A DNA stretch of 64,000 nt from a virus: the IMG/VR virus record IMGVR_UViG_3300050020_000030, positions 1-64,000 of that record; one strand, 5' to 3'. A program made the position numbers and the translations under genes. The notes beneath the pieces are model-generated. The model made no database searches and was not told the DNA's origin. It was given only the letters and a program-made list of their open reading frames with translations. This document shows positions 136 to 36,855 of the stretch, piece after piece. Each line of letters starts with the position of its first letter. The first letter of the stretch is position 1.

Positions 136-203
136 GTAATACACGTAATATGGAATCTCAGGATTAAGACAGTATTAAGACCATATCGGTAATACACGTA
201 ATA
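136..203. repeat. 15-bp direct repeat GTAATACACGTAATA (candidate operator)
   Basis: Identical copies at 136-150 and 189-203, between the promoter and ORF 210. Confidence 0.8.
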
Positions 204-209
204 CAAGGA

Positions 210-992
210 TTGGAATTCATGGCAAAGAGCGAGACAGGATTTATCTACTTTATTCGTACAGAATCTTCGGACAGGGTTAAGATAGGATATACCGAGGGAA
301 GTCCTAAGAGACGGTTGATCGAACTGTGTATAGGTTCTTCAGATAACTTAGTACTTGAGGGTGGTATACCCGACGGAACCTTCGGGCATTCGGAAAGGTC
401 GCTACATAAGTTTTTTGAGGAGTTTCATATAAGAGGAGAGTGGTTCCGAAGGGAAGGAAATCTAGCACTGTTTATTGATAAGTGCGTGGAAGGGGATTTA
501 GTATTAGCAGAAAAGCTATCGACGCCTGTCCCTATTCTAGAGACATTGAACCAAACAAAATTCAGTACTTTAAAATCCTTTAGAATCCCAAATGACCTTG
601 TCGAAAGAATGGAAAGGCAGGTAGAGAACACCGGGGAGACCGCTAGCAAGATTATCGTAGACTCCTTATATCAGTACTTCGATAATTCTGATAAGGAGGG
701 AAGATACGAGGCCCTTAATTCTAAAGCACCTGAGCCTTCACTTACTCTGGAGGGTATCCGGAGCATATTTGAGGAGTATCTATCTCCGAGACAGACCAAG
801 ACAAAGCCTTTTAAGGCTATCCCGGAGATTGGGGTCGTGGAAGATCAGTCTGAATCCGTTCCGGTCAGCATTCCGGCTGGACTAAGAAATATTCAAAGTC
901 AACAACATTCTGCTCGGTGCGCGTGCTTTATCTGTAAGCCGCCCAAGGATGCGGTGGCCGAGCCTAAGAAAAAGAAGTGGGGGAAGAAATGA
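210..992 (+). CDS. GIY-YIG (T5orf172-like) domain fused to a ribbon-helix-helix domain
   Basis: GFIYFI..VKIGYT..RL..L..E..LH..F..RGEWF at the N-terminus; KSFRIPNDLVERME..TASKIIVDSL RHH-like pattern; true start may be ATG 219. Confidence 0.7.
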   Translation: MEFMAKSETGFIYFIRTESSDRVKIGYTEGSPKRRLIELCIGSSDNLVLEGGIPDGTFGHSERSLHKFFEEFHIRGEWFRREGNLALFIDKCVEGDLVLAEKLSTPVPILETLNQTKFSTLKSFRIPNDLVERMERQVENTGETASKIIVDSLYQYFDNSDKEGRYEALNSKAPEPSLTLEGIRSIFEEYLSPRQTKTKPFKAIPEIGVVEDQSESVPVSIPAGLRNIQSQQHSARCACFICKPPKDAVAEPKKKKWGKK

Positions 993-2142: not shown

Positions 2143-2360
2143 ATTGTCCGGATTGTGGACGGGACCTAGAAAAGATTCCGGAGCAGTACCGGGATTTTGT
2201 ACACTCTATCCCCGGAAAATCGGACTGGTGCTTGCCTCCTGAAAAGTTCTCTCCGGAAGCAGAAGCTGCTCTAGATAAGCAGGCGGAAGCGTTAACAAAA
2301 CAATTTCGTAAGACCCTAGAGGAGGTACTAAATGGTAACATGGTCATATCGTTGGGATGA
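2139..2360 (+). CDS. small CxxC protein, N-terminus similar to ORF 1957
   Basis: MNCPDCGRDL; coupled ORF. Confidence 0.6.
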   Translation: MNCPDCGRDLEKIPEQYRDFVHSIPGKSDWCLPPEKFSPEAEAALDKQAEALTKQFRKTLEEVLNGNMVISLG

Positions 2361-2649
2361 ATCGAAGAAAGGATGGACCCTTCATCGTAGGGTTGACCAG
2401 AAATATCTGGCCCGGACAGGATTTACTTGGCGCGGGCCGAGTTTGTGGTATAATAAACCTATTGGGCCAATCACCCAGTTTAACCACATTCTTAGAGAGA
2501 CGTTGTTGACGAACTACTATTCAAATTCCTTTTTTAGTAAGTCACCGTTTCTTGGCGGGATGAGGATGTGTCTTCCAGTTCATTCGGGAAAGACGATCCA
2601 GTTCTTTACCTACGGCCTGAAGGAGAAAAATGAAACCCACAGTTCCTGA
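2332..2649 (+). CDS. hypothetical protein ending in a major-capsid-derived segment
   Basis: GGAGG RBS; PFLG..LPVHSGKTIQFFTYGL matches capsid exon 1 (15/26 identical). Confidence 0.7.
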   Translation: MVTWSYRWDESKKGWTLHRRVDQKYLARTGFTWRGPSLWYNKPIGPITQFNHILRETLLTNYYSNSFFSKSPFLGGMRMCLPVHSGKTIQFFTYGLKEKNETHSS

Positions 2650-3518: not shown

Positions 3519-3694
3519 AATTCGGTAAAAGTTTTCAAGACGGGGTACTAGAGAATCTCCTCTTCCACCAAGAGCAGGACGCCGTGGCCCACAACAAGAA
3601 GTGGGATAGGATAGCTTTCTGGGGATTTATCTTTGCATGGGCTATGCTTTTTGCTGGGGTAATATGGAGCGATCTAGCAAGAGGAGTCTTATGA
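3515..3694 (+). CDS. small membrane protein (59 aa, not in ORF track)
   Basis: ATGA coupling at both ends; hydrophobic IAFWGFIFAWAMLFAGVIW. Confidence 0.6.
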   Translation: MKFGKSFQDGVLENLLFHQEQDAVAHNKKWDRIAFWGFIFAWAMLFAGVIWSDLARGVL

Positions 3695-4023
3695 GTCAGT
3701 TACTGTTTTCTTTAACTTCGAAGGACTTTGTGTTTCAGACTTTTTGTACCGGGGGTAATGGAGGCCAGCATCGTAATGCTAAGCAGAACGGGGTTCGGTG
3801 TATACATCCTCCTTCTGGAGCGAGGGCGGAGCATAGGGACGGTCGGGACCAGCCTAAGAATAGACAGGAGGCATTTCGGAAGTGCTGCGAAACTCCGGAG
3901 TTCAAGGCTTGGCACCGGACGGAAGTTTTTCGGCGTCTTGGCAAGACAAAAGATATAGAACGGATTGTAGATGAGCAGATGGACTCTAAAAACATAAAGG
4001 TGGAATACTATGAGTCTTTATAA
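3691..4023 (+). CDS. RF-1 domain GGQ peptidyl-tRNA hydrolase (ArfB/YaeJ-like)
   Basis: TGGNGGQHRN..GVRCIHPPSG..RDQPKNRQEAF; GAGGAG RBS before ATG 3691; no codon-recognition domain. Confidence 0.85.
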   Translation: MSQLLFSLTSKDFVFQTFCTGGNGGQHRNAKQNGVRCIHPPSGARAEHRDGRDQPKNRQEAFRKCCETPEFKAWHRTEVFRRLGKTKDIERIVDEQMDSKNIKVEYYESL

Positions 4024-4974: not shown

Positions 4975-5220
4975 ATGAAATATTCAAGAGAACAATACGA
5001 GCGGGCAGCAAAGTACTATGATACCTATTTCTCTAGGGGTGGTTTTTATTCTGATCCGGATAGGTGGGTAAAACTGTATGAAGAGGTTGGAAACGGGAGA
5101 AGTACTGACACAGAATTACAAGCAAAACTATTCGTAGAAGGTCTATACGGAGGACCTGCTTTCTCTCTTGGACACAGTAACATTGCTCGTACTGCGACTG
5201 GACTGGGGCGGGTTTTATAA
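4975..5220 (+). CDS. hypothetical protein carrying an 11-aa portal-identical peptide
   Basis: AAGGAG RBS; GHSNIARTATG identical to the portal. Confidence 0.7.
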   Translation: MKYSREQYERAAKYYDTYFSRGGFYSDPDRWVKLYEEVGNGRSTDTELQAKLFVEGLYGGPAFSLGHSNIARTATGLGRVL

Positions 5221-5227: not shown

Positions 5228-5446
5228 ATGAGGGATAAAATGATATCTTGTGTTTTCAACTTTCCCCTACCCGAAACTCAAGAGGCTATCGACTTCTTGG
5301 TCGTTGAGACTCGTCATGCCGTTCAAAAAGCCCAAGTGGACAACCCGGAGCTTCTAAAGCCCGGAGTGTTTTTTGTAACGATCTCCGCAGGAGATGTTGG
5401 TGTAACCACGGAGGAAGATAAATTTGAGTACCACCCGGAGGGATAG
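5228..5446 (+). CDS. hypothetical protein
   Basis: 3' part of track ORF 5168; start uncertain (5228 or 5240). Confidence 0.45.
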   Translation: MRDKMISCVFNFPLPETQEAIDFLVVETRHAVQKAQVDNPELLKPGVFFVTISAGDVGVTTEEDKFEYHPEG

Positions 5447-5826
5447 TGACTCAGGTAAGAGGGTTTAAGCCTTCGGCAAAGTACCAAAGGCTATACAATA
5501 GGTACAACAAATTGTACTTCTCGGGGGAGCTACCACCATGTATAGTGGGTGCTGCGCCTTTGCTAAAGATTGAATACGTCGAGAACAAAGTTTTTGGAAA
5601 GTCTAAAAAAGTGTCAGGAGGGGAATATGCCTTGCTATGCTGGGAAGATGATCAGTCCTATATTATCCTAGATAAAGGAACTACTGTTTTTCATATAGTG
5701 ATCGCAAAGCAGTCGGTTCTTCACGAGCAAATTCATCTATACTTGGGAACACGAGGCCACGGTAAAGAATTCAAGGACCAGATCAGAAGGATCGCTGCTC
5801 TAGGCGCGTTGGATACCCTAATCTAG
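5446..5826 (+). CDS. SprT-like zinc metalloprotease
   Basis: YNKLYFSGELP...VLHEQIH...GHGKEF. Confidence 0.8.
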   Translation: MTQVRGFKPSAKYQRLYNRYNKLYFSGELPPCIVGAAPLLKIEYVENKVFGKSKKVSGGEYALLCWEDDQSYIILDKGTTVFHIVIAKQSVLHEQIHLYLGTRGHGKEFKDQIRRIAALGALDTLI

Positions 5827-5841
5827 AAGGAAAAGGAAACT

Positions 5842-6219
5842 ATGTATACACTCAGTTTGGTACACAATACGGCCTTCCCCGAACCGGGAGAATTTTTCAA
5901 CAACACTAAGAATGGCGGGGTTCTAACAATGTCTCGTCTTCGTCGAGAAGTCTTGCGGGCGAGTGTCGAAGGTCTGGAAACTTTCGAGGATAAAAAGTAT
6001 CGGGGCTGGATTCATCCCTATGTCCTGCACGACGTTCTTAATGATGCCTCCTTTAACGGATTAACAGATATTATAGCACGCGGAGAGAAGAAAGACAAAG
6101 CATTTGTATCAATAACTCTTGCGGGAGTTGAGTTTATTTCAACGACAGACGTTCGGGTCTCTACCTTTATCTTCGGTAAAAACTCTGATCCCCTCGATCT
6201 TAAACTTATCTACATCTAA
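5842..6219 (+). CDS. stand-alone fragment homologous to the major capsid protein (putative A-domain)
   Basis: 25/50 ungapped identity to capsid exon 2, including NDASFNGLTDI; AAGGA RBS. Confidence 0.8.
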   Translation: MYTLSLVHNTAFPEPGEFFNNTKNGGVLTMSRLRREVLRASVEGLETFEDKKYRGWIHPYVLHDVLNDASFNGLTDIIARGEKKDKAFVSITLAGVEFISTTDVRVSTFIFGKNSDPLDLKLIYI

Positions 6220-6279
6220 AGTAACCAAAATATAGGGTACTAAAGATTTATTTGAAATGGTTACTATTCTGGCCGGATT

Positions 6280-6290
6280 TGTGGTATAAT
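6280..6290 (+). promoter_or_regulatory. extended -10 promoter
   Basis: TGTGGTATAAT. Confidence 0.6.
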
Positions 6291-6315
6291 AGTACTAGTG
6301 ACAAAAATGTTTATA

Positions 6316-6620
6316 GGGGGAGAAGCCTCCCGTAGAAGGCTCAAATCCTCCCCCATCGATTTAAGTTACCGGAAATATCCGGCTACCCTGCCTCGGGGGT
6401 TTGTACTGAGGCACTTTTTGATTCAGGTAATACCTGACCACGCGGTTGTTGGAACCGCATCTGAGCAGATGGCGCTGGAGTAACATACTACCCAGGTATC
6501 TGCTCAACAATTTGATTCCGGAAAATGGAATCTGCCAAGCCGCACGTCCGGAGCAACTCCGGGGGATCGGTTGCATTGCAACGGAGGAGGTCGCTCCTCC
6601 TCTATCTCTTTTCGAAAAGG
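6316..6620 (+). ncRNA. candidate structured RNA or long 5' leader
   Basis: About 9-10 consecutive stems, e.g. TGCCTCGG/CTGAGGCA, TCAGG/CCTGA, GCGGTT/AACCGC, TGAGCAGAT/ATCTGCTCA, CCGGAG/CTCCGG, GAGGAG/CTCCTC. Confidence 0.55.
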
Positions 6621-6630
6621 AATAAATCTT

Positions 6631-7266
6631 ATGGCCGGTATTCTCACTTCTCAATCTATCAAGAATCTTCCCACAGTGCTCCTCACTACCGCTACCGAGA
6701 CCGCTGTTCTGGTCCCCGCTTCTGGTCTTTACTCTGGCTACCCTTCGCCCATTATGCCCGCAGGTTCCGGCTTCGTCCTGATCTCCGATCCGGATGCGCA
6801 GTCGAGTAACCCCACGGCGGCTACGCCCACGTATAGCAACGCTTCATTGGATGGTCAGCCTTTCATCCTTCGTGCAGTGTTCAACGTGAATACGGCGGGT
6901 TCATACACCTTCGTTCCCAAGATTTATCAGGTTCCCGCTTCGGTGGTTGTGAATAATGCTTCGAGCACTCTCGGGTCTTCGACGCTGACGAACGATCACC
7001 TGATCGTTACCGGCGCTACCCTGACTATCAGCGGTAAGGGCCAGTACGTTCTGGAAACCCAGCTTCTGTGGGATTCAGTCTCGGGCAAGCTGAACGGCGT
7101 GTTCGATTCGATCACGGATGCTACCTACACGGGTCCTGCTGCTAATACCGCGCAGCTTACCACGGTCGGTGCGCTTGATTTGAATTTTGTGCTGAGTGTT
7201 ACTCTAGGAACGGCTAATGCCGCCAATTCTTATACGCTCAAAGAATTTTCTCTCAACCGCATCTGA
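6631..7266 (+). CDS. putative virion decoration/structural protein, paralog of ORF 27726
   Basis: AAGGA RBS before ATG 6631; S/T/A-rich beta protein; shares ATET, GxPFxxR, GQ.L.T..WDSV, EFS motifs with 27726. Confidence 0.65.
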   Translation: MAGILTSQSIKNLPTVLLTTATETAVLVPASGLYSGYPSPIMPAGSGFVLISDPDAQSSNPTAATPTYSNASLDGQPFILRAVFNVNTAGSYTFVPKIYQVPASVVVNNASSTLGSSTLTNDHLIVTGATLTISGKGQYVLETQLLWDSVSGKLNGVFDSITDATYTGPAANTAQLTTVGALDLNFVLSVTLGTANAANSYTLKEFSLNRI

Positions 7267-16200: not shown

Positions 16201-16537
16201 TTACGAAGAGCTTACCCCGGACCAGATCGCGGAAGAGGCTCAAGAACGAATTAACAAAGCGGCTGATCTTCAGTTTACTGTAAATACTAAGGGCTGGAAT
16301 ACTCTGCTTGCTACCTTCGAAGAAATGAAGGACGCCCAGATCGCCAATTTTATGGCAATCCCCCCAGGTTCCGCGAACGAAAAAGATATCATTGCCGCGC
16401 ACAACGTTGCGTATACTACAGCTTTTATTCTAAATGAAGTTGTTAACGCGACTAACCGAGCAATTCAAGATGGGTTCAACGCTCAAGCCGAACTACAATC
16501 TTTTAAGAACCCCGAGGTCAGTTCCGAATGGGAATAA
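16181..16537 (+). CDS. head assembly-associated helical protein
   Basis: ~118 aa helical protein after portal with NTKGW motif, typical position before scaffold. Confidence 0.55.
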   Translation: MDNFMTDYEELTPDQIAEEAQERINKAADLQFTVNTKGWNTLLATFEEMKDAQIANFMAIPPGSANEKDIIAAHNVAYTTAFILNEVVNATNRAIQDGFNAQAELQSFKNPEVSSEWE

Positions 16538-19500
16538 ATAAACTTATAGTGTTTCTTCTCTTGGCGACAGGACTGTGTTATTCACAGTCTGCCCAGAGGA
16601 TTTCCGTTGCCATACAAAGCCCAGCGGCTGCGGCGGGTTACGCTAGAATTATTCCCCATGCCTCTATCTACGTTTGTACATATAACTCTCAGTTGAACTG
16701 CTCTTCCGGTAATTACCTTTCTATTTATTCGGATGTAGGTCTTACGAGCGGAATTGCACAGCCATTGGTTGCTGATTCTGTGGGTGGTTATCAGTATTAT
16801 ATTCAGGCAGGTACGCAGGTAGTCGAGAAGGTTTGTTATACGGGGGCGCAGTGCCAAAGCTACGCGGTGTATATAGGAACTAGTAACCTATCCATATCCG
16901 GGAATGGCGCTCCTACCCAGACGTGTTCTCTCCCCAATCAAGGTCAAATCTATATAGATAACCTGAATGGACAGATTTATTCCTGCAACGGGACTATCTG
17001 GCAAATAGCTGCCACCACCGCCGTGCCAGCTTCTCCCTCCTTTGCGATACAGTTTGCTAACTCGGGGGCTACACACTTTCAGGCGGACTCATCTATAACT
17101 GTGAATCCAACTACGCACACGTTCACAGCACCGAATGTATCTGCAAGCACCGTCGTGGCTGGCGCTATATCGCCCGGATTTACAGTCTCAATCAAAGACC
17201 CGCGCTGCGGTGGCGCAGTGGATGGGGTAACAGACGATGCAGCCGCCTGGACGGCTTGTATCGCACTGGCGTCGGCAAATAGCGGAACCGTCACAACGGA
17301 TGGATTGTCACTGCTGGAAAGCACACCAACGATTCCGAGCACTGGAAATTTCAAGATCGAAGGCACAACTCCTGGCGCGGGAATGCTTTTCTCAAATCCA
17401 TCGGGATGGGCCAGAACGGTCGTCCTCCCGTGGCTTTATGGATCCACAATCAATGCGGGAATTTACGTGCCCTCTGGTGCTTCTAATATCACGATTGAGG
17501 ATATGGCTTTGACCTGCGCACCATCGAGCGCAACAGGTTGCGGAACGCCAATATTCTTGCTCGATGACAACAACATCACGCTACGTAATAATACCTATGG
17601 GGCTGGGATCTGGAGCAACTACGGAAATGGCATTGAGTTTTTCGGAGGTCACGACCTAACTTTCGATGGGGGAACGATCTTCGGGTATAACTCTGCTGGA
17701 ATCCGAGGCAACTACTCGTCTGGATTGAGCGGCACGTCCCTGAGAGTTCATGCGCGGAATCTGAATATTCAAGGCGCTAATCCATCGAGTATATACACCC
17801 CCGGATCGTTGGAGTTTTTCAATTCCCAATCAAGCGATTTTACCAACAACAATATCGACCAAGGTAATGTGTTGAAACCCGTCTCCAACCCTTGCTGTGG
17901 GTACGGCGGACTGTTCTACACGACTGCCAATCATCACATTCCGATTACGTCGCTCTCTGGCATGGGCCATTCGATGACAGCCACGGTCCCAGGTAGCTCA
18001 CCTATCCCGATCACGTCCATGACCACCTCTGGGACGACGACGACAATTACGGTAGGAAGTACACTCTTTCCGTCAGTTCTCGTTCCCGCCCAGACGGTTC
18101 TTTGTGGAAATTATGGAGTTGTTGGAGGCACCGGCACTTTACCAGCAAACGGGTATTGCACAATCATCGGAACCAATCAGGTAATGTTCCCAACACCCAG
18201 TTATGATGCGACCGGGGCTAATCTGACAAACGCTGTCTTCTGGCTTTACGGATTCCTTCCCGACATCGGCCAGCAGTTTTACGTTGACCTGGCCGGTGTG
18301 TTTAGGGGAAACGCATCCATCAGCAGCCTGACCTACACCGCCTCTTATCTGACTGGGACGTTGAGCACCGGGCATTACTCAGTGCAGGACATTGGCACCT
18401 ATTATGCCTGCACAATTGGGGGCATAACCGCGCCCACGTTGCCAAGCATCACCGCAAACGTAGCTGGTGGAGCAATCACCAGCTACACAGTGGTCAGCGG
18501 CGGAGCAAATGCCACCCAGGATTACAGTTTCACCATCACGGATTCGACAGGCACAGGGGCAACCACGGGCGCACAGACATTTAATTCCAGTGGGGCATTG
18601 ACGGCTTTAGCGGCAGGGACAGCTACAGGGTCGGGTTATACAAGCCCGACTGTTACCGTGAGTGGTGGGGATGGGCTGAGCGGTAATTATAGCTGCACGG
18701 TCGCAAGCGCCGCTCCCGATACATTTACGACTCAGTTGCCGGGGCTGCATTCCGTGATTCCGGCAGCAGCGGTGGCGACTGCCACGGTTTCCAGACAGTT
18801 AGGCGTCTCCACGATGGCAACCGTCACTGGGTATGGTTCTTTTACGTTTGGCTTGGCGGGCGGAGACACAACGGGAGTCAATCTCTCTAATAGCATCCTG
18901 TCCATGACGGGCACGACGACGATCACGGTTACAGTTGGAGCGGGCATCCTCCCTCCAGTTGGCTCGACGTTCGTCGCGAACATCATAGGCGTTACGGGCG
19001 GGACCGGAACCCTGAACGGATATTTCTTCTACTCGACAGTCGCATCGCCGACCACATTCACTTTCCAGCAGTCCAAGGCTTCCGCTGTTGGTGCGAACGT
19101 ATCAAGTGCTTATCTAGTGGCGCAGGCTGGCGTAGTTTCCGCGTTCGATACGTCGAGCGGCAACAAGTACAGTAACACTGGCGGCACGGGGATATACTTT
19201 GCAGATTGCAATTTGTGCAGTTCCGAAGGCGATCACTTTTTCAATATCGATCAGCAAGAGCTAGACACCTCGTTGCCGGTTGGAGCCGTGGCAATGAACG
19301 GCGTCATCGGGGGTGTAATTGATGGGGACGTAGTAAACGGGTCAGCAACAAACTGCTTTGAGGCCGAGATTACCTTTGGGTTGGTCATTTCTGGAAGTTC
19401 ATGCAAAGATGCTACTGAAAGCGGCATCAAACTAGCCGGGGTCTTCAACTACAGCATCGGAGATTATACTCAGACGGGAACCTCAAGGTTTGGCGTCAAT

Positions 19501-21099
19501 ATCAACGGAGTTTCTACGGGTGCAACGGGGACGCTCAACATTTCCGGCACTACCTCTGTCGCCATAAATCCATATGGCAGCGCGTCCAGCAATCTGATCT
19601 TCGGAGGCCCCACGAAGATTTTAGCATCGCAAGGATTTTGCTTGGAGGATAACACTACCGCATCATCCTACACCGGTCTCGATTGCAACGGAGTCCCGCT
19701 GATAGTCAGTGGCACAAACCAGAGTTTCGACAACCTGAGCGTTGAGAACATTCCAGCATCTAGTCCGGCGATTACCTTGTTAAATTCAACGAACGCATCA
19801 TTCACAAACCTGATCGCATCTAATCTGTCGAATCTTTTCTACACTTCAGGATTCAATTCGAATCCCAACATAAACGGAGGCCAAGTTTCCAATGTGGCCG
19901 ATCCATACCTTGAAGCCTACCCGGCCTATGTCACCGGGTCTGTGGCCACTGGGTCCAATGTAATTCAATCCATAAGCAGTACACTTGGCGTGGGCGACAT
20001 TGTTTCTGACGCGACAGTGTTTGGCGGCTCTGGACACATACCAATAGGTTCGGTCGTGCTTTCGGTTAACTCCGGGACGGGTTGCACATCGGCATGTGTG
20101 GTCATATCCAACACGGCAACTGGAACCGTTTCGGGGGATATACTTTACGTTTTTGGCTCGGTGACGACGGGTATGAAGTGGTACAACGTAACAGCCACTG
20201 GCGGCGCCGGAGCGGGCCAGGGATTCTTGGCGTACTCGATTCAAGGGCTAGATATGCAGGGTGGCAGTTTCTCGGGCTACTCTGGAAGTGTAATTGATTT
20301 GCGTGGCACAAGCGGAACCAGCACACCCAACTCAGTGAAGGGTGTCACAATCGCAGGCGGGTCTAGAAGCCTTGGCGTGTCTCAGCAAGCGAGCAATACC
20401 ACTGCAACAGCCAACTCCTTCAGCGGGGCAACGTCCGCCGGAATCTCCGATCTCACATCGAATCTGGGAAACAGTTATCTAGGCAACTTCTTATCTGGCA
20501 TAACTGCGCCAACAGCGATCAGCAATGTCAATGCTGTAGTCACCGGAAACGTGGCAGGGATAGGCACGGGGACACCAACCTCGGCAAGCATCCCATGCAA
20601 CGCGAATAGCGTGTCGAATCTTTATTACCAAGCATCGACCGCCAGCGGCAGACAGCCGTGGATGTGCGATCCTGTGACGGTAACATGGGTACAAGTTCCC
20701 GCTCCTAGTGCGGTGCAATTCAACACCGTTAAAACGGTGGCCAGCGTGCCACTGACAACCTACTCAGGTACGGCTGGTATTGGAACAACTACCCTACGGA
20801 CTCCGAGTGCGACCGGACTTTTCCAACTGTGTGTCTATATGGAAGTAGACACGGTGGGAACCGCCGGAAATTTCCAGTTCGGAGTAGGTTACACGTCGGC
20901 ATTCGGGAGCGCCGCGCACAACAGCAATATCGGGACATCTGTTGCCGTCAGCACACCGCACGCAACTACATTTCCGGGGTCTGCGTGTTCGACATTTGGG
21001 GCTAAAGCTGGCACTAATATCGTGTACCAGATCACGGCTACTAGTGTCACGGGCACACCGACAATCGAGTACGGCGCGACGTTGACGCAATTGCAATAG
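16528..21099 (+). CDS. tailspike/receptor-binding protein with signal peptide, head-binding-like domain and beta-helix
   Basis: N-terminal hydrophobic leader; QPLVADS head-binding-like segment; GAVDGVTDDAAA pectate-lyase-3 cap; parallel beta-helix repeats. Confidence 0.8.
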   Translation: MGINKLIVFLLLATGLCYSQSAQRISVAIQSPAAAAGYARIIPHASIYVCTYNSQLNCSSGNYLSIYSDVGLTSGIAQPLVADSVGGYQYYIQAGTQVVEKVCYTGAQCQSYAVYIGTSNLSISGNGAPTQTCSLPNQGQIYIDNLNGQIYSCNGTIWQIAATTAVPASPSFAIQFANSGATHFQADSSITVNPTTHTFTAPNVSASTVVAGAISPGFTVSIKDPRCGGAVDGVTDDAAAWTACIALASANSGTVTTDGLSLLESTPTIPSTGNFKIEGTTPGAGMLFSNPSGWARTVVLPWLYGSTINAGIYVPSGASNITIEDMALTCAPSSATGCGTPIFLLDDNNITLRNNTYGAGIWSNYGNGIEFFGGHDLTFDGGTIFGYNSAGIRGNYSSGLSGTSLRVHARNLNIQGANPSSIYTPGSLEFFNSQSSDFTNNNIDQGNVLKPVSNPCCGYGGLFYTTANHHIPITSLSGMGHSMTATVPGSSPIPITSMTTSGTTTTITVGSTLFPSVLVPAQTVLCGNYGVVGGTGTLPANGYCTIIGTNQVMFPTPSYDATGANLTNAVFWLYGFLPDIGQQFYVDLAGVFRGNASISSLTYTASYLTGTLSTGHYSVQDIGTYYACTIGGITAPTLPSITANVAGGAITSYTVVSGGANATQDYSFTITDSTGTGATTGAQTFNSSGALTALAAGTATGSGYTSPTVTVSGGDGLSGNYSCTVASAAPDTFTTQLPGLHSVIPAAAVATATVSRQLGVSTMATVTGYGSFTFGLAGGDTTGVNLSNSILSMTGTTTITVTVGAGILPPVGSTFVANIIGVTGGTGTLNGYFFYSTVASPTTFTFQQSKASAVGANVSSAYLVAQAGVVSAFDTSSGNKYSNTGGTGIYFADCNLCSSEGDHFFNIDQQELDTSLPVGAVAMNGVIGGVIDGDVVNGSATNCFEAEITFGLVISGSSCKDATESGIKLAGVFNYSIGDYTQTGTSRFGVNINGVSTGATGTLNISGTTSVAINPYGSASSNLIFGGPTKILASQGFCLEDNTTASSYTGLDCNGVPLIVSGTNQSFDNLSVENIPASSPAITLLNSTNASFTNLIASNLSNLFYTSGFNSNPNINGGQVSNVADPYLEAYPAYVTGSVATGSNVIQSISSTLGVGDIVSDATVFGGSGHIPIGSVVLSVNSGTGCTSACVVISNTATGTVSGDILYVFGSVTTGMKWYNVTATGGAGAGQGFLAYSIQGLDMQGGSFSGYSGSVIDLRGTSGTSTPNSVKGVTIAGGSRSLGVSQQASNTTATANSFSGATSAGISDLTSNLGNSYLGNFLSGITAPTAISNVNAVVTGNVAGIGTGTPTSASIPCNANSVSNLYYQASTASGRQPWMCDPVTVTWVQVPAPSAVQFNTVKTVASVPLTTYSGTAGIGTTTLRTPSATGLFQLCVYMEVDTVGTAGNFQFGVGYTSAFGSAAHNSNIGTSVAVSTPHATTFPGSACSTFGAKAGTNIVYQITATSVTGTPTIEYGATLTQLQ

Positions 21100-21690: not shown

Positions 21691-22842
21691 ATGCCAGTAG
21701 ACGAACAGAATGAAGTATTCAATGAGTGGTCTCAGGGAGTTAGCCTAGCTAACTCGGACTACTTCCAAGAGGTCCCGACTGAGCTTGATAACCCCGCAAA
21801 CTTTGTGGTTCCAGATCAACCTGTAGCTCCAGAACAAGTACTTCCCGCTGCGCCAGAACAAGTACTTCCTGTAGATAACGAACCTGAAGTTATCCAGCTT
21901 GAAGATGGGGGAACAGTAACCATCGAGAAAACCAGTAAGGGATGGAAGGCCATTCTGGATAGTGGAACCCCCGGTGTCCCCCAGGAGAATTTTTACGGCG
22001 GAACTTGGCGTCAACTTTTGGCCGGTCTTGCGAAGGGTAAGCTCGAAGCCTCGAAGACTATCAAGAAGCTTAAGAAAGAAAAACTGTTAGGTGGAGATGA
22101 AAATACCCCACTCCCGGCCCCGGTCTCCCGACCCCTTAAAGTGAGCGTTCCTACGGCGGACGAGGTTTACGCAGTCAAGAATAAGTTTGATGAGAATATT
22201 GTTGATGGGTTTGATGAGTACTTCCGGAAACGTTTTGGGGTAGACCCAGAAGTTTTTGCCGAGAAGCTGAAGTCAGCAGACGGCGCGGAACGAATCGTTA
22301 ACGCCCAGATTATCAAGAAGGCAATTGATGAAGTTAATGGGGATTTTGTAAGAGAGAACCCGGACTACGTAGAAAATTATACAGGGTCCGATGTATGGCA
22401 GGAAAATGCCCGACTCCTTATCTCCAGAATTAGCAAGACATATTTGAACAAAAAGATTTCCAAGAAGACTCCGGACGAGGAAGTAGACAACACTGTTGCT
22501 GAACTTTACTCGAAAGGTTTTTGGACAGTAGAGAATTTAGAAACCGCGAAGGATGAGTTGATCGATAGCGAATTGCTTAAGCGTTCAACCAAACCCCACG
22601 TTTCTACGACTCAACCCCAGCAAGTGGCGGCACCTGTAGTGACCCGCCCATCCGAGCAACCCGCCCCGCGTATTGCAGCGACTCCCGGACAGCCAATGGT
22701 TCTAGGTTTCTCAGCTAGCAACAGTTCACCCTCTGCTACACCGGAACCCCGAACGTTGACAGACACCGATCTTCAATCCCTCCCAATGGAGCAGCTACGG
22801 AAAATCGCGGCGGCTCAGATACAAGCGATGAGGGGAAGATAG
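21691..22842 (+). CDS. capsid scaffolding protein
   Basis: Acidic Pro-rich N-terminus, helical core, C-terminal LQSLPMEQLRK helix; directly before capsid gene. Confidence 0.75.
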   Translation: MPVDEQNEVFNEWSQGVSLANSDYFQEVPTELDNPANFVVPDQPVAPEQVLPAAPEQVLPVDNEPEVIQLEDGGTVTIEKTSKGWKAILDSGTPGVPQENFYGGTWRQLLAGLAKGKLEASKTIKKLKKEKLLGGDENTPLPAPVSRPLKVSVPTADEVYAVKNKFDENIVDGFDEYFRKRFGVDPEVFAEKLKSADGAERIVNAQIIKKAIDEVNGDFVRENPDYVENYTGSDVWQENARLLISRISKTYLNKKISKKTPDEEVDNTVAELYSKGFWTVENLETAKDELIDSELLKRSTKPHVSTTQPQQVAAPVVTRPSEQPAPRIAATPGQPMVLGFSASNSSPSATPEPRTLTDTDLQSLPMEQLRKIAAAQIQAMRGR

Positions 22843-22866: not shown

Positions 22867-23136
22867 ATGGCCTATACTCCCGCAGTAAATACAGTTACCA
22901 GTGGTAACTTTCCTAACGCTTTGGCCGTTTACTATGAGCGTAAAGCAATTCCAAACCTTAAAGCAAGCACTCCGTTTCTGGGGGCAACAAAGCAGTGGCC
23001 TTTGCCGAGGCACTCCGGTAACGTGATTCAGTTCTTCTCCTATAACCTCTTGGGCGCGAATGTCTCTCAGACCACCGAGGGTTTCGTGGGTTCTCCTGTT
23101 CCCGAGAGCGCAGTCAAGATTCAGGCGACAATCGGT
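22867..23136 (+). CDS. major capsid protein (N4-gp56-like), exon 1
   Basis: YYERKA..LPRHSGNVIQF..TEG..ATIG; joins in frame to QYADY. Confidence 0.9.
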
Positions 23137-24052
23137 GAACTTGCTGCTTAACAGCTAACTGGCCGATATAAAATTCCGCTAAATCGGTGAACATCTGTGG
23201 TATAATGGTGTTATGCCAACAGAAAATACCGAGCTAACTCAAATGAAAGATCACACAAAAGCGTATATGGCCGGAGTCCTCGACGGAGACGGTCATCTAG
23301 GAATTCAGAAACACGGGCAGTATAGTCCTAGTATACAGGTTTGTGGTGAGTCTAAATCGCTTATGGAATGGATCGTCCTTAACTTTGGGGGATCAATCCG
23401 CAAAGAAAAAATCAAGAGCGGTAAAGACTTCTACAAATGGATACTCTACGGGAAGAATTCTCAAAAAGATTTCGTAGAAGGTATCACACCTTTTGTGTTC
23501 ATAAAAAGATCACAAGCAGAGATTCTCCAAGAGTTTCTTAATATCAATCGGAGTGACTACGATCCGGAAAAGAGAGAATCTTACTATCTAGCAATTAGGA
23601 AAGCTAGATCATTGAGCAGCGTAGAGACTGACATGCGGAACAAACTAGACAATAAACTGGCTTGCGCTTATGCGGCTGGTCTGGTTGATACAGACGGACA
23701 CATAAATTTATACACGGTTCCCTCGGGAAAGTCTAAAGGTAGCATACGAACAGGAATAGAAATCGTAAATATCTATAGACCTATTCTCGATGAGCTAGCA
23801 AGGCAGTTTGGGGGTCACGTAAGGAAAAGAACAGAAGACGGGTACAAGACTCGGTATCAGTGGTTCGTTACTGATATGAAATCCGAGGAAAAACTCCTTC
23901 TGGCGATGCTCCCTTATATGATTGTGAAGAGAGAAAAAGCAGAAAATCTTCTCAAGCACCTCCGAGAAAGACTTAGTTTGAAGATACAGCCCGAACTCAT
24001 AGGTGACTATGAGAGTGTCCCAGTGGGAACGCTGAAGACCTAAACACGTTTG
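23137..24052 (+). mobile_element. group I intron 1 in capsid gene (916 nt, with LAGLIDADG ORF)
   Basis: Exon ends in U, P1 ATCGGT/GCCGAT; P3 TTCCGC/GCGGAA; P4 TCGGT/ACCGA; R CGTAGAGACTG; S AAGATACAGCC; P9 CTCATAG-GTGA-CTATGAG; ends in G. Confidence 0.92.
23213..24043 (+). CDS. double-motif LAGLIDADG homing endonuclease (intron-encoded)
   Basis: YMAGVLDGDG and YAAGLVDTDG motifs; PF..IK, LPYMIVKRE. Confidence 0.92.
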   Translation: MPTENTELTQMKDHTKAYMAGVLDGDGHLGIQKHGQYSPSIQVCGESKSLMEWIVLNFGGSIRKEKIKSGKDFYKWILYGKNSQKDFVEGITPFVFIKRSQAEILQEFLNINRSDYDPEKRESYYLAIRKARSLSSVETDMRNKLDNKLACAYAAGLVDTDGHINLYTVPSGKSKGSIRTGIEIVNIYRPILDELARQFGGHVRKRTEDGYKTRYQWFVTDMKSEEKLLLAMLPYMIVKREKAENLLKHLRERLSLKIQPELIGDYESVPVGTLKT

Positions 24053-24676
24053 CAATACGCTGATTACACCAATAGCTCTGACCTGTTCTTGGATACGGCG
24101 ATTGACGACAAGGGCGCACTTAGCTCTTTGGCCGAGGAAATGAACTATCGCCTCGCCCTCACCCTGAATCTGTTGGTCTCCACGGCTGCGGATTCTCTGA
24201 ATGGCATCGACGGTTCTGTGAATCAGCAGTTGGCAGTCGGTACCTATCTTACCGCGTCGAACCTGCGTACCATCGCTCAGCAGCTTGAGTCGGTGAACGT
24301 TCGTCCGTTCGAAGCCAACACCTACGCCGGGGTTATCAATCCTCTGGTTGTGCATGATATCTATAATGACGCCAGCTTCAACGGCCTCACGGATATCATG
24401 AAGCGCCAGTCCGATTCTTCGAAGAAGTTGTTCGAAGGTCTGGATCGTGACGCCCCTCTGGAGTTCGCGGGTATTAAGTTCAAGAGCACCACAACCGCAT
24501 CGGCTGTGACCATCTCTTCGAACATTTACTATCCCACGTACATCTTCGGTGACGATGCTCTTCTAAGTATCTTCCTCGGTCCTAATCCGGCTGACAAGAA
24601 CAAGAAGAACTACTCACTGAATATCCAGATGGCTCCCGAAGGCGGCTCGGTCTCCGACCCGGCTCGCTTGATTGGT
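24053..24676 (+). CDS. major capsid protein, exon 2
   Basis: QYADYTNSSDL..YAGVINP..HDI..FAGIKF..YPTYIFG..SDP. Confidence 0.9.
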
Positions 24677-24938
24677 GAACTTGCTGCTTAAGCAGCTAAT
24701 CGGCCAATCTAAAACTCAGCTATATCGGTGAACCTCTCCTAAAATTTTAGGAGACAATACCGAGGGAAGACTAGGGAAAGTACCTAAACCTAGAACCCGT
24801 AACGACTAATACGCTGGGCCTTCGAAAGAAGTGAAGATAGAGTCTGAGCTATACGGCGACGTATAGAGTGTCTCCGGGGTGATCCGGGGGTGGATTAAGT
24901 CCACGATGACCTGAAAAGGCATCTCCAAAACGCAACTG
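24677..24938 (+). mobile_element. group I intron 2 in capsid gene (262 nt, no ORF)
   Basis: P1 GATTGGT/GCCAATC; P3 CTCAGC/GCTGGG; P4 TCGGT/ACCGA; P5 TCTCCTAAA/TTTAGGAGA; R CGTAACGACTA; P8 CTTC-GAAA-GAAG; S AAGATAGAGTC; P9 CTATACG-GCGA-CGTATAG (arms share the flanking G); 3' G at 24938 (alternative 24941). Confidence 0.9.
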
Positions 24939-25034
24939 GGGTGGATTTCATATAACTGTAAGTTCGTGGTCACGCCTCCGCCCGGAGTAGTTATGAGGGC
25001 ACGCAAGCTCCTGAGCCAGACGTCTTCAAGCTAA
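24939..25034 (+). CDS. major capsid protein, exon 3 (missed by ORF track)
   Basis: GWISYNCKFVVTPPPGVVMRARKLLSQTSSS* restores the DP...GW capsid C-terminal motif; total 329 aa. Confidence 0.85.
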   Translation, partial: GWISYNCKFVVTPPPGVVMRARKLLSQTSSS

Positions 25035-25204: not shown

Positions 25205-25957
25205 ATGTACGATATTTACGAATATACGAATCTAATTAATAACAAGAAGTATGTCGGGCAGAGTATAGATAAAGATACCCGGAGACGGCAGCACTTATAC
25301 GAGGCTAAAAGGGGTTCTACCTGTCCCTTTCATCGTGCCATAAGAAAATACGGAATAGATAACTTCTCTTTTAGAATTATTGAATCTGTAGATACTCAAA
25401 AAGGCGCTGACGATCAAGAAGACTTTTGGATAAACGAACTAGACACGCGAAGCCGGGATCGAGGATATAATCTCAGGGGTGGGGGGATAGCAGGTCTCTT
25501 AGCTGAAGAGAGTAAGCAAAAAATCAGTAATTCTCTTACTGAGTACTACTCCGATGAAAAGAACCGCGAAACTATTAGGGATTCCTTGAAGAATTACTAT
25601 GAGCAGAACCCGGATCGTGTAGAGAAGATACGGGAGGAGTCCAGAGAGAATATAAAGGAAAGAAAGAGAAATGACTTGGGTCAACTTCTTCCGTCTTCGG
25701 GTGTTCCCGTTCCCGAGAAGACTCCAGAGGAGAAAAAAGCTATTAATAAAAGAAAAAGCGAAATGATGCTTTCCAAGTCTCCCGAAGAAAAGGCTCGGAT
25801 CAGCAAGAAGTTAAGTGATGCCCAGAAAGCCAGATATGCTGCTATGACCCCGGAAGAAAAAGAAGCCTTTTGTAAAAGAAAACGAGAGATTTCAGTTGCA
25901 TATCACGCCAAAAAGAAATCAGGAATCCAATGCACAGTAGCCCAAGAAAATTCGTAA
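25205..25957 (+). CDS. GIY-YIG homing endonuclease with NUMOD-like repeats
   Basis: IYEYTNLINNKKYVGQS..R..H..AIRKYG..GYNLRGGG. Confidence 0.9.
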   Translation: MYDIYEYTNLINNKKYVGQSIDKDTRRRQHLYEAKRGSTCPFHRAIRKYGIDNFSFRIIESVDTQKGADDQEDFWINELDTRSRDRGYNLRGGGIAGLLAEESKQKISNSLTEYYSDEKNRETIRDSLKNYYEQNPDRVEKIREESRENIKERKRNDLGQLLPSSGVPVPEKTPEEKKAINKRKSEMMLSKSPEEKARISKKLSDAQKARYAAMTPEEKEAFCKRKREISVAYHAKKKSGIQCTVAQENS

Positions 25958-27725: not shown

Positions 27726-28436
27726 TTGGCAAATTTTGATACAATCGATGCACACGTAGGTGGCACAGGCCGCGAACAAATCAATGTTCTTACCCTTACC
27801 TCCGCAACTGAAACCCTTCTCTTGATGGGTACTGACACTTCCGGTACGACGGTCACCGCCGTTCTTGGAGTTCCCACAGGATCACGTACTGACGCCTCGG
27901 GACATACTCTTCTGTATGGTGCGGGTGCTCCCGTCGAGTTTAACCAGAATGGGGCAGTTAGCTCCCAGAGCAAGGGCCGCAAGGCTTCTGTGTTTACCGC
28001 GTCCCCGAATTTCTCTGTCAGTACGTTTGACTCTGGTCGTCCGTTCCGGATCAGACTTTTTGGGACCGCCTCGGTAGCCGCAGTTACTGTTACTACGGTA
28101 ACTAACTCAATCGTGGTGGCAATTTATCAGGGAACTGCAATCGTGGCTACTCGTCAGGTTTCTATCCTTACAGCGGGCGGAAGCTCTACTAGCACGACCG
28201 CTGCCGCAGTGGGTCAGTTCTTCTTGGATACCACCGTGCAGTGGGACTCGGTAAATCAGGTTCTTGGTGGCTGGTACGGCGGAAACGCTCTTAACACCCT
28301 CACCGCGTTTCACGCGCTGGGTAACGCCGTGTCGGTTACTACGGCCAACAACCTTCAGTTCTGTGCGTCGGCTACCTTCGGTCACGCAGAGGGTGGTACG
28401 GTCACGGTTTCTGAATTCTCGATTGAACAGGTTTGA
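27726..28436 (+). CDS. putative virion decoration/structural protein, paralog of ORF 6631
   Basis: AGGAG RBS, TTG start; shared motifs with 6631. Confidence 0.65.
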   Translation: MANFDTIDAHVGGTGREQINVLTLTSATETLLLMGTDTSGTTVTAVLGVPTGSRTDASGHTLLYGAGAPVEFNQNGAVSSQSKGRKASVFTASPNFSVSTFDSGRPFRIRLFGTASVAAVTVTTVTNSIVVAIYQGTAIVATRQVSILTAGGSSTSTTAAAVGQFFLDTTVQWDSVNQVLGGWYGGNALNTLTAFHALGNAVSVTTANNLQFCASATFGHAEGGTVTVSEFSIEQV

Positions 28437-31394: not shown

Positions 31395-31675
31395 TGTTTA
31401 AATTTATTTTCGCACATCTCGGAAATCTAGGGACTAGCTTCAAATGGTTTATGACCATGTGCCTCGGAGAAGGCGGAACGATTAGTTTTGGCCGCTCCTT
31501 GAGTGCGTTTTGGAGTCTATATTTTGCTGCTATAGACTGGAATCTATTTGCTAAGTCAGGTCATCTAGTCGATAATGCTACGCTTTTGACACAACTTACT
31601 GTTATTACCACGAGTTACGCGATCACCAAGGCACTGAGAGCAAGCGACGGAGCGAAAGATGATCCTAAAGTTTAA
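31394..31675 (+). CDS. holin-like membrane protein
   Basis: ~93 aa with two hydrophobic segments, ISFGR motif. Confidence 0.45.
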   Translation: MFKFIFAHLGNLGTSFKWFMTMCLGEGGTISFGRSLSAFWSLYFAAIDWNLFAKSGHLVDNATLLTQLTVITTSYAITKALRASDGAKDDPKV

Positions 31676-34259
31676 GTACCTTCTTCCCCTACTGTTAGTA
31701 GCCGCCGCTTTCGGTCAGTCCGGGCAGCGGTCTGGGCAGGCTTTGCTTAAAGGTGGGGGGAATTTTGCGATCATCGCCCCCAGCGCCTCTGTGTATGTGT
31801 GCGTATATAACTCCCAGCTTGCCTGTTCTACCCAAGTAGCTACATGGTCGGACCCCGCTCTTACTGTTCCGGTTTCTCAACCTATTATAGCAGATGTGAA
31901 CGGTGTATATAGCTACTATCTCCCGAGTTCCCAGAGGGTAGTGGAAAAGGTTTGTTCTATACAGAACCAGTGTAGCTCCTACGCGGTAAGTATTCCATAC
32001 GGGGCGAGCGGGTCCTCCGGAGCGGTACTTGCGGTATTCGGGAGATACGGGGCAGTTGTAGCGGGTACTGGGGATTATAGCTTCTCCCAAATATCAAGTA
32101 CACTTCTTCACTCTCAGTTGCCTACTCTCCTTAGTGGGGATATTCCAAACAACATTTCTACCGCTGCGCAGCTAACGTCGGCTTTGGCCGCGTGCGGCTC
32201 GGCAACTTGTTCGTTAACTATCATTGGAAACATTGCAATTGCGTCCAATTTGTCAATCCCTTCTAACGTTAGCCTCACCTTTTCAGGGGGTCAGTTACTA
32301 CCTGGATCAGGTGCTACAGTAACGATTCTTGGAAAGATAACGGACACGTCTTCGCAGATATTCGGTGGTGTAGGTTCTATCGCCGGGTTGACTCTTGATC
32401 GACCTGAGTGGTTCGGAACGGGAGCAACGTGCGTAAGCGGTGCGTGCCCGTCGATTAAGACCGCCATCTCAGCGTTAGGTAGTAACGGGGGTACCGTAAG
32501 ACTGGGCTACGCTTTCTACCGTAGCGGATACGAAGCGGGGACAAACCTGACGCTTCCGAATATCACAGTTCAAGGAGTTCAAGAGCCTGCATTTAATACC
32601 GCTACCCCCACTGCTTTGGTGAACGGATCGATTATTCAAGGTACCTTCGGGGTCGCTGCGGGGGCGAATAACCTCACTATTTCCGGTGTTGGCTTTGATA
32701 CTGGGTCGGCCTTCGTCTCCTCGCAGTATGGAGGTACGTCTTCAGATGCCTTCTCCATCTACGTACCCGGACAAACTACAGGTACAACCCCAATATCAAA
32801 TGTCAATATTAGTAACGCAGCGTGCTTGGTCTCAAGTGCTTCGGCGTTATTCCACTGTTTCTTAGCGGAGAATGTTGTCAACTCCACGTTCCGGGATATC
32901 TCAGGATTTTATGGTGTCCACGGGATGATTATCAAGGGCGTGCACGACACGGCGGACGGACTCTATTTCCACGGTCACAACTACGACTGCTTGATTGTTA
33001 AGTCGGACGACTACGCTCCAACCAGTAATATAACAGTGAGTAATATGCACTGCAATAGCGTGATAGCCGGAGATACGGGAGGCGTAATATTGCAGGCTGA
33101 AACGGCCTCGCTAGCTAACGTGTCTTTAAGCAACTTCGCTATTCAGGGAGCGAACTTCGGTGTTTCTACGATTGTTAGTGCATCTGGGGTCTCTAGGATA
33201 TCAGTTGCAAACGGAACCGTTGACTACGGTGGGCTATCTTCTGCTCCGAGTTCTCAGATGTGTATTGGCGACTCCGGAACAGGAACCTATAATTACTCCA
33301 GCTTTACAAACATAGATTGCAATAACTACCAGTACGCCACGTACTTTCCGACCCGCATGGATGCCTCCATGATCTCAAATCTAACCTCAAATAACTCCGC
33401 ACAGGGCATTTGGCTTAACGGGTCAAACACGGTTATATCTAATGTGTTTGAGGAGGCAGACACGGGGTTCAATTCATCGCTTGTTACCTCAAGTGTAGGT
33501 GGATCGAGTATCTCTGTGCAAAATCTTACCGAGTACGGGGCTTATGGGTACTTATCTATCGTGAGCAACGGTGCGCACATTGCGTTCGGTGATTTACTGG
33601 ACGGAACCGGATTATTTCTCCAGCAGACCATAGAAGTTGGAAGCCCGTACACCGTGCGTGGAGGGACCGGAGCTACTAACGACTTTACCGTACAGGATGC
33701 AACGGGAGTTTATAACAACTGGTTGGTGACAGATGCCGGAATTGGTCATCTACGCGGTGATATGTGGGCCAACAGCTATCTAGTACAAGGGCATATAGCG
33801 ATCCCTGCTACGGCTGGTGGTTATTTAGGTCCGGCAACGGGATATGTCCAGCTTGCCCCCGCTCCTTCGGGTGCTGGCTGTCTCTACCAAAACGGCGCTA
33901 GTACCTATTCATGGGCTACGTGCGGCGGTGTTACGCCGCTGGCGACTCCCGCCTCGGCCATTACAATTTCTCTCCCCCACGGGTACGGAGTTTGTACCGG
34001 GACCTGTACTGTAACGCTACCCGCCCCAACAACAGCGGGGGATGACTTCTGTCTGTGGAACGACGTGGGAGTAAGTACTGCAATTACAATTTCAGGACAT
34101 ACAGGTGTTTTCTTTTCTCAAACTGATTTAAGTGCTTACGGGACAACGGGCGGTACCTTTACTGCCACGGCAGCGGCGGGGAACAAAGTTTGCATGGTGG
34201 CAAGGGATACAACGCACTGGATTCCGCTATCCTATGCAGGAACTTGGACGGCCAATTAG
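31659..34259 (+). CDS. second tailspike/receptor-binding protein with signal peptide
   Basis: Leader ending AAAFG|Q; N-domain homologous to 16528 (VCxYNSQLxCS..QP..AD..VVEKVC..QC.SYAV); PEWFG and beta-helix. Confidence 0.8.
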   Translation: MILKFKYLLPLLLVAAAFGQSGQRSGQALLKGGGNFAIIAPSASVYVCVYNSQLACSTQVATWSDPALTVPVSQPIIADVNGVYSYYLPSSQRVVEKVCSIQNQCSSYAVSIPYGASGSSGAVLAVFGRYGAVVAGTGDYSFSQISSTLLHSQLPTLLSGDIPNNISTAAQLTSALAACGSATCSLTIIGNIAIASNLSIPSNVSLTFSGGQLLPGSGATVTILGKITDTSSQIFGGVGSIAGLTLDRPEWFGTGATCVSGACPSIKTAISALGSNGGTVRLGYAFYRSGYEAGTNLTLPNITVQGVQEPAFNTATPTALVNGSIIQGTFGVAAGANNLTISGVGFDTGSAFVSSQYGGTSSDAFSIYVPGQTTGTTPISNVNISNAACLVSSASALFHCFLAENVVNSTFRDISGFYGVHGMIIKGVHDTADGLYFHGHNYDCLIVKSDDYAPTSNITVSNMHCNSVIAGDTGGVILQAETASLANVSLSNFAIQGANFGVSTIVSASGVSRISVANGTVDYGGLSSAPSSQMCIGDSGTGTYNYSSFTNIDCNNYQYATYFPTRMDASMISNLTSNNSAQGIWLNGSNTVISNVFEEADTGFNSSLVTSSVGGSSISVQNLTEYGAYGYLSIVSNGAHIAFGDLLDGTGLFLQQTIEVGSPYTVRGGTGATNDFTVQDATGVYNNWLVTDAGIGHLRGDMWANSYLVQGHIAIPATAGGYLGPATGYVQLAPAPSGAGCLYQNGASTYSWATCGGVTPLATPASAITISLPHGYGVCTGTCTVTLPAPTTAGDDFCLWNDVGVSTAITISGHTGVFFSQTDLSAYGTTGGTFTATAAAGNKVCMVARDTTHWIPLSYAGTWTAN

Positions 34260-36848: not shown

Positions 36849-36855
36849 ATAGATA

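Follow-up and report, generated by a model that had tools for sequence, protein, structure and literature searches.

The locus and its genomic setting

The window, meaning the whole stretch of DNA that was analysed, comprises the first 64 kb of an 88.6-kb linear uncultivated IMG/VR record with a completeness of 77 % as estimated by CheckV. Its ORF list contains a + strand ORF of 125 AA at 5842-6219, referred to below as the mini-gene and its product as the mini-protein (Table 1). All genes around it have the same + orientation. Small ORFs of early type, including those for a T5orf172/MUG113 protein, an RF-1 domain protein and a SprT-like protein, form an array from position 1 to about 6.2 kb, which is followed by a structural module with the large terminase, an SU10-type portal, the scaffold (21691-22842) and the capsid protein. 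Only 15 nt separate the stop codon of the SprT-like gene from the start of the mini-gene, and the two are therefore probably co-transcribed.

The initial annotation had credited the ORF with its own ribosome binding site, which agrees with the purine-rich stretch AAGGAAAAGGAAA ending 2 nt ahead of the ATG. A scan for the sigma-70 consensus found no + strand promoter near the mini-gene, although this consensus may not represent the promoter type of the host. The gene caller recorded an alternative internal ATG at 5929, which would yield a product of 96 AA. This shorter version was rejected and the start at 5842 preferred, because the N-terminal strand is conserved across the mini-protein family and its motif is common to most members.

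DNA of the same phage was found in 19 peat metagenome runs, and no DNA variants were seen in the mini-ORF across four of these environmental data sets from peat. In one metatranscriptome run, assembled contigs extend over 6327-7250 and none over the mini-ORF; such assembled contigs are uninformative on its transcription. Among cultured phages, Tunturiibacter phage Tunturi_3 (PP885686.1) has the nearest capsid protein, annotated as its major head protein (35 % identity, 98 % query coverage). A MAG of Candidatus Sulfotelmatobacter carries an annotated capsid homologue, and together these findings suggest a host among the Acidobacteria.

Several further features were recorded. The mini-gene is separated by a gap of 410 nt (6220-6630) from the next gene, whose likely ATG is at 6631, with a GC-rich hairpin followed by T residues at 6583-6603. 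This region is a candidate for a long 5' leader or a small RNA; the Rfam search at gathering thresholds reported nothing within 6220-6630. The following ORF (6571-7266) and that at 27726-28436 encode paralogous proteins of about 230 AA of unknown function (E 2.6e-5 in the self-search). Relatives also carry two copies of this gene type, one of them near the capsid gene, and one peat run contains an allele of 6886-7156 that diverges from the window by 31 differences. The RF-1 domain protein among the early genes (3637-4023; Pfam E 6e-10) is peptidyl-tRNA hydrolase/ArfB-like, and in the relative L017 its homologue is located downstream of the capsid gene, adjoining a GIY-YIG endonuclease. In the window, two paralogous GIY-YIG homing-endonuclease-like ORFs were identified by self-search and Pfam (25205-25957 and 36853-37743, E 1e-14), the first of which is free-standing and directly downstream of the capsid gene. 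The two large tailspike-like proteins (16528-21099 and 31659-34259) have a common N-terminal module of about 100 AA with 45 % identity (E 7e-18).

Table 1. Features of the mini-gene and the capsid gene (nucleotide positions in the window) and structural matches of the mini-protein model (range in the matched chain).
Feature	Range	Strand	Basis and details
SprT-like (zinc-metalloprotease-like) gene, upstream neighbour	5446..5826	+	Pfam PF10263, E 2.9e-5, 24.3 bits (slightly below the 25.6-bit cut-off)
Purine-rich Shine-Dalgarno stretch	5827-5839	+	read directly off the sequence; 2 nt between its end and the ATG
Mini A-domain gene	5842..6219	+	125 codons and stop; ORF list, AF2 model
Block NDASFNGLTDI	6040..6072	+	codon-by-codon comparison with capsid 24365-24397
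Capsid exon 1	22867..23136	+	90 codons; tblastn with uninterrupted capsids of relatives
LAGLIDADG ORF inside capsid intron 1	23213-24043		Pfam
Capsid exon 2	24053..24676	+	208 codons (spine helix, A-domain and the beginning of the P-domain strands behind it); tblastn
Part of exon 2 aligned to the mini-protein (capsid A-domain core)	24239..24559	+	BLASTP, tblastn, hhalign
Capsid exon 3	24939..25034	+	31 codons and stop (coding to 25031); tblastn
VIA match 6x8m_A, SrpI encapsulin	143-294		Z 6.2 (top), rmsd 3.4, 97 aligned
VIA match 1ohg_A, HK97 gp5	254-381		Z 4.5, rmsd 3.0, 79 aligned
VIA match 2pk8_A, PF0899			Z 4.3, rmsd 4.3, 79 aligned

The capsid gene

A tblastn search with the uninterrupted 329-AA capsid proteins of relatives resolved the capsid gene of the window into three exons of 90, 208 and 31 AA. 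The spliced 329-AA product that had been claimed before fits these exons, the splicing itself being inferred through the comparison with the uninterrupted relatives. Exon 2 is 80-94 % identical to relatives. The second intron (262 nt) contains no ORF and has a group I intron match at 24677-24866 (E 8e-10) whose 46.3 bits are under the Rfam gathering score of 50 bits. At both interruptions (23137-24052 and 24677-24938), the read-through ORF ends with ELAA and a stop codon directly after the exon. Since the capsid genes of the relatives L004, L006, L015 and L028 are interrupted at other positions, introns can be regarded as rampant and mobile in this capsid family.

The family carries the JGI label 'N4-gp56 family major capsid protein', and the capsid protein matches TIGR04387 of NCBIfam weakly (E 2e-7, 30.7 bits with a cut-off of 60). 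An AF2 model of a relative's capsid protein is poor overall (pLDDT 52), with values of 70-85 at residues 140-255. HK97-fold capsids account for 50/50 of the structural matches listed for it, with Z-scores up to 11.1, and its spine helix corresponds to H110-140.

Relation of the mini-protein to the phage's own capsid protein

The mini-protein matches the ORF of capsid exon 2 (24050-24691) with 38/107 identical residues (36 %, E 1e-17, BLASTP). An ungapped match with 25/50 identities had been described initially; the match is indeed ungapped, with the count corrected to 27/60 over residues 25-84 of the mini-protein, and different codons are used for 20 of these 27 identical residues. The residue pairs LAGVEFISTT/FAGIKFKSTT and TFIFG/TYIFG, also pointed out at that stage, both lie inside the BLASTP alignment. 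In the block NDASFNGLTDI, all 11 residues are identical to the capsid protein at 24365-24397 with 24/33 identical nucleotides, and the codon comparison reproduced the previously reported count of 7/11 synonymously differing codons. When the + strand ORFs of the entire 88.6-kb record were all compared with each other (self-search), this pair was among the strongest internal matches (E 3.6e-15), and a tblastn search of the whole record with the mini-protein returned the mini-ORF and the capsid segment and no match elsewhere.

The codon differences at identical residues would be explained by an old divergence under constraint at the protein level. A recent duplication of the phage's own capsid gene or a gene conversion from it was rejected in view of the 24/33 nucleotide identity, the differing codons and a phylogenetic tree that does not pair the two sequences. 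A detached capsid exon was likewise rejected, because the ends of the ORF match no intron position seen in the capsid family.

Predicted fold of the mini-protein

The HK97 fold consists, in this order, of the N-arm, the E-loop, the spine helix of the P-domain, the A-domain, the strands of the P-domain and a C-terminal return. The helix-strand-helix-sheet core of the A-domain forms the contacts around the centres of pentamers and hexamers in capsid subunits. The profile of the mini-protein family aligns with that of the capsid proteins at a probability of 98.8 % (E 6.5e-17, hhalign), with columns 15-99 of the mini-protein profile matching residues 148-240 of the capsid protein, a segment that directly follows the spine helix H110-140.

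A compact alpha/beta protein was predicted with AF2 from an alignment of 12 sequences (pLDDT 78.8, pTM 0.73), comprising the elements E3-7, H30-42, E53-57, H59-71, E78-80, E90-93, E96-100, E107-111 and E120-124. In a comparison of this model with 48,161 PDB representatives using VIA, a method independent of Foldseek, HK97-fold capsids, encapsulins or PF0899 occupied 48 of the best 50 rows, and in every such row the alignment falls on the A-domain half. The Z-scores are modest (at most 6.2) and not convincing alone; the assignment of the fold rests on the uniformity of this match list together with the sequence homology. The top named matches in BFVD are major capsid proteins (probability 0.96-0.99), and all feature matches in the ESM Atlas are phage capsid clusters, with a structural TM-score by query of 0.64-0.68. 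Foldseek against the PDB gave no match at E <=0.001 for the mini-protein model, with capsids only among the weak rows, and a PDB sequence search with the mini-protein and capsid profiles returned nothing meaningful. No family for the mini-protein was found in Pfam (E up to 1), PHROGs or NCBIfam, including TIGR04387 of NCBIfam and DUF1884 of Pfam, and none was found there for three of its homologues.

The mini-protein thus appears, in these predictions, to retain the helix-strand-helix-sheet core of the A-domain. The reading of the initial annotation as the axial domain of the HK97 fold with shortened loops is borne out by the profile alignment, the AF2 model and the VIA match list, and the lack of a compact fold, which had been named as grounds for abandoning it, is not what the prediction gave. 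At 125 AA and aligned only to capsid residues of about 148-275, the mini-protein lacks the N-arm, E-loop and P-domain, and it can therefore not form a shell. We put the probability that the ORF at 5842-6219 is a real gene whose product is an A (axial) domain of the HK97 capsid fold, free-standing and with trimmed loops, at about 90 %.

Small uncharacterised phage proteins also occur among the capsid matches in BFVD, namely A0A8D9CCE8 (130 AA, uncultured marine phage, probability 0.97), A0A346FJ00 (93 AA) and a 76-AA protein of Haloferax tailed virus 1. Judged from their models, these may be further free-standing A-domain-like proteins.

A family of stand-alone A-domain proteins

About 14 stand-alone proteins, 119-139 AA long, make up the family to which the mini-protein belongs. 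A HMMER search of 1.84 billion cluster representatives gave 21 matches, comprising about a dozen proteins of 98-134 AA, aligned over residues of about 26-125 with 31-46 % identity, while the rest were capsid proteins or pieces of them. A profile search added one further member of 139 AA. The members are rare, each cluster holding one or two sequences. Most come from short contigs of Logan or NCBI, and one lies on an 86.5-kb contig. For one homologue (L046), found on a 1,055-bp JGI contig from soil, the ORF has its own start and stop codons and is followed by an overlapping small gene, which argues that the mini-proteins are products of complete genes and not truncated capsid proteins. The existence of intact homologues had been set as a test of the initial annotation, and such homologues were found.

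Searches of other collections yielded little beyond this. Neither the mini-protein nor two family members had a match in GenBank phages, a scan of IMG/VR with the single mini-protein returned full-length capsid genes only, and scans with two sub-alignments of the family detected no further mini-genes in IMG/VR or GTDB genomes. Scans of JGI metagenomes gave the one locus L046, from one of two scans.

The family is characterised by an N-terminal strand M-K-T-L-x-L-x-H-G, which reads M-x-T-L-x-L/V-x-H in most members and M-Y-T-L-S-L-V-H-N in the window, and by the motif Y-R/K-G-W-I-H-P, both of which are absent from capsid proteins. Two deletions distinguish it further. One removes about 8 residues behind the second helix, at the site of two short additional helices (H202-217) in the capsid model, and the other about 10 residues in a beta-hairpin. 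Near the C-terminus, the motif F-G-x-N-S-D-P-x-D carries a 4-residue NSDP insertion relative to the capsid proteins. As alignments and tree show, the mini-protein of the window has the length, the N-terminal strand, the motifs and both deletions of this family. The motif ND.SFNGL.DI, identical to the capsid protein in the window copy, is degenerate in roughly half of the members and is therefore not a family-wide functional surface.

In the HMMER results, the closest matches of the mini-protein are other mini-proteins, and no full-length capsid protein is closer. A maximum-likelihood tree of the shared region, which is unrooted and has long mini-protein branches, separates 12 mini-proteins from 18 capsid segments with a support of 100/99 and a branch length of 1.39, and the window mini-protein does not group with the window capsid protein. 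The terminal branches amount to 1-5 changes per site for the mini-proteins compared to 0.01-0.5 for the capsid proteins. On the evidence of the shared indels, which are independent of the tree, the family is considered to have left the capsid lineage once, and by the branch lengths it has evolved far faster than the capsid proteins since this split. Besides an arms race, relaxed constraint could account for these long branches. Of the original description as a stand-alone copy of the capsid A-domain, the stand-alone A-domain is retained, whereas its derivation as a copy of the phage's own capsid gene has to be given up, given that it falls into a separate, older mini-protein family and that the closest relatives do not have the gene.

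Patchy occurrence among related phages

Nine related records gave capsid matches only and no mini-gene, including the 112-kb record G001, which is 98 % complete and encodes a capsid protein that is 82 % identical. The slot between its SprT-like gene and its homologue of ORF 6571-7266 is taken up by an ORF of 68 AA, a gene for an HNH-like endonuclease and a tandem repeat. In the corresponding extracted region L045 (G001:83000-87500), the HNH-like endonuclease is encoded at 1996-2874 on the minus strand in the slot of the mini-gene, and the short tandem repeat at 1341-1589 reads KTY/YKF in two frames. The genomic context of the family was read for two members. For L046, the small gene adjoining the mini-gene has homologues downstream of the capsid gene in the close relatives L016 and L017, indicating that the family circulates in the same group of phages and that accessory genes are shuffled there. 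Since close relatives are without the mini-gene and one of them has a homing endonuclease in its slot, the mini-gene is best described, from these genome comparisons, as a real but patchy accessory gene.

This patchiness, together with the variability of the slot and the mobile elements around it (the HNH-like endonuclease in G001 as well as the numerous homing endonucleases and introns of the phage group), would also be expected if the ORF were a non-functional relic, i.e. a piece of a foreign capsid gene that entered a recombination hotspot and has yet to decay. Such a relic is very unlikely, as about 14 divergent homologues keep their length, start, stop, and family-specific indels and motifs, other mini-proteins are closer to the window copy than any full-length capsid protein, and the tree parts all mini-proteins from all capsid proteins. 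The boundaries of the ORF also coincide with no intron site known from the capsid family.

The position of the mini-gene at the border of the early and structural modules could alternatively indicate a minor virion component, for instance a plug or a decoration protein on the capsomer centres, where an A-domain shape could in principle stack. We regard this role as highly improbable: the gene is absent from close relatives with 80-94 % identical capsid proteins, and the mini-protein evolves fast, unlike structural partners of a slowly evolving capsid.

Comparison with known proteins

With the N4-gp56-type capsid proteins (TIGR04387), the mini-protein shares a homologous A-domain core and the motifs Y-x-G-x-I-x-P, D-x-x-N-D-x-S-F-N-G-L-x-D-I and A-G-x-x-F-x-x-T-T. 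In contrast to them, it has no spine helix besides the other missing HK97 elements, namely the N-arm, E-loop and P-domain, gives no match to TIGR04387, and shows the two loop deletions, the 4-residue insertion and an N-terminal strand that is new.

Among described analogues, the Family 4 A-domain encapsulins come closest (PF08967/DUF1884; PF0899 of Pyrococcus furiosus, PDB 2PK8; PMC8346489). Like the mini-protein of the window, these are stand-alone proteins of about 100-125 residues that consist of the HK97 A-domain alone and are encoded directly downstream of an enzyme gene. They differ in their sequence, since the mini-protein has no DUF1884 match, and in their source, which is hyperthermophilic archaea or Rhodothermus and not a peat phage. 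Family 4 genes lie in conserved two-gene operons with GAPDH, DeoC, OsmC or hydrogenase as the enzyme. In the window, the mini-gene follows a SprT-like gene after 15 nt, a pairing that is absent in G001. With 36-46 % identity to capsid proteins, the mini-protein comes from a specific phage capsid lineage, and its origin is therefore independent of Family 4. The Family 4 proteins are thought to bind their partner enzymes, and their function is unknown (Andreas & Giessen 2021, PMC8346489).

By analogy, the fold may have been re-used for a task unrelated to capsids, with the mini-protein serving as a small oligomerising or adaptor protein for an enzyme, perhaps the SprT-like protein. The arrangement of an enzyme gene followed by an A-domain gene resembles the Family 4 operons, for which a complex of GAPDH and the A-domain protein has been reported (PMC8346489), and PF0899 is among the fold matches (Table 1). 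Nevertheless, we consider this role quite unlikely, because the pairing with SprT was seen once, the SprT homologue of G001 has no adjoining mini-gene, and there is no sequence membership in DUF1884.

Possible function of the mini-protein

A small gene in the early region that is patchy in its distribution and fast-evolving while conserving its fold points to an accessory or conflict role and not to a core structural one. In the mechanism that we favour, the mini-protein would act as a soluble mimic of the capsomer-forming face of the monomeric capsid protein and would compete for a partner that normally binds this face. Taken as a whole, this mimicry is given slightly less than even odds. The preferred candidate for the partner is a host immune receptor that senses capsid monomers, against which the mini-protein would serve as a decoy or as a shield on nascent capsid monomers; the second choice is the capsid protein itself. 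Receptors of the first kind have been described, as Avs7, Avs8 and Avs10 bind the penton- and hexon-forming face of the A-domain of the monomeric capsid protein (bioRxiv 10.64898/2026.01.04.697583). The surface that triggers them is a face of the very domain that the mini-gene encodes alone, although the link between the two is hypothetical. A decoy or shield in a conflict with host capsid sensors is accordingly put forward as a tentative proposal, especially as the binding of a free A-domain might activate an Avs-type sensor instead of blocking it.

Mimicry is made plausible in part by two other small early ORFs that end in segments resembling virion proteins. In the 105-AA product of ORF 2332-2649 (+), the last 38 residues (2536-2646) resemble residues 33-70 near the N-terminus of the capsid protein (PFLG...HSG..IQFF.Y.L), with E 8e-6 in the self-search and E 9e-9 against the capsid protein of a relative. 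The 81-AA product of ORF 4975-5220 (+) ends in 22 residues (5152-5217) that are 68 % identical to residues 458-479 of the portal protein (E 4e-6; 3e-4 in the self-search) and include GHSNIARTATG. The more specific idea that the mini A-domain is a decoy or shield against sensors of the A-domain face and, at the same time, one of three early-region mimics of virion proteins (5842, ORF 2332 and ORF 4975) is more doubtful still.

With the capsid protein as the partner, the mini-protein would instead be a competitor in capsid assembly. It would dock on the A-domain face like a neighbouring subunit and, being without P-domain and E-loop, cap or poison the capsomers. The benefit would lie in shutting out related phages that infect the same cell, or in restraining the phage's own capsid monomers until scaffold and portal are in place. 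The A-domain core is kept, and the window copy keeps most capsid-invariant residues, e.g. G, P, D and ND..N-G..D. Satellites are known to redirect assembly with capsid-fold proteins, an example being Ccm of SaPIbov5 (PDB 7rwz), which is among the VIA fold matches of the mini-protein model. Elsewhere, antagonism of particle assembly by truncated capsid homologues is an established principle, as with RTL8 against PEG10 (bioRxiv 10.1101/2023.02.03.527044). Both cases have in common that a partial capsid protein is encoded apart from the full-length one; the RTL8 case is, however, host-encoded and concerns a eukaryotic retroelement Gag fold, whereas the mini-protein is virus-encoded with an HK97 fold, so that the analogy is only one of principle. 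On the other hand, a poison that best matches the phage's own capsid protein would damage the phage itself, the nearest relatives assemble without the mini-gene, and the two deleted A-domain loops may take away part of the contacts between subunits. For these reasons, assembly competition is judged unlikely.

Conclusion

To our knowledge, stand-alone HK97 A-domains have been described only in thermophilic archaea and a few bacteria, with unknown function. No description of phage-encoded stand-alone A-domain proteins, A-domain decoys or capsid decoys was found in the literature. While the free HK97 A-domain as such is known from archaea, the mini-protein is a variant of independent origin that is carried by a phage and belongs to a separate sequence family. 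Here, the phage itself keeps a free A-domain that stems from its own capsid lineage, and its rare, patchy and fast-evolving nature matches the profile of a conflict gene. Because several bacterial immune receptors recognise this domain of capsid monomers, the hypothesis that phages deploy isolated capsid domains as decoys or as assembly competitors is testable. Even as a structural oddity, the mini-protein represents a second, independent route to a free A-domain and offers a minimal foldable A-domain for structural work.
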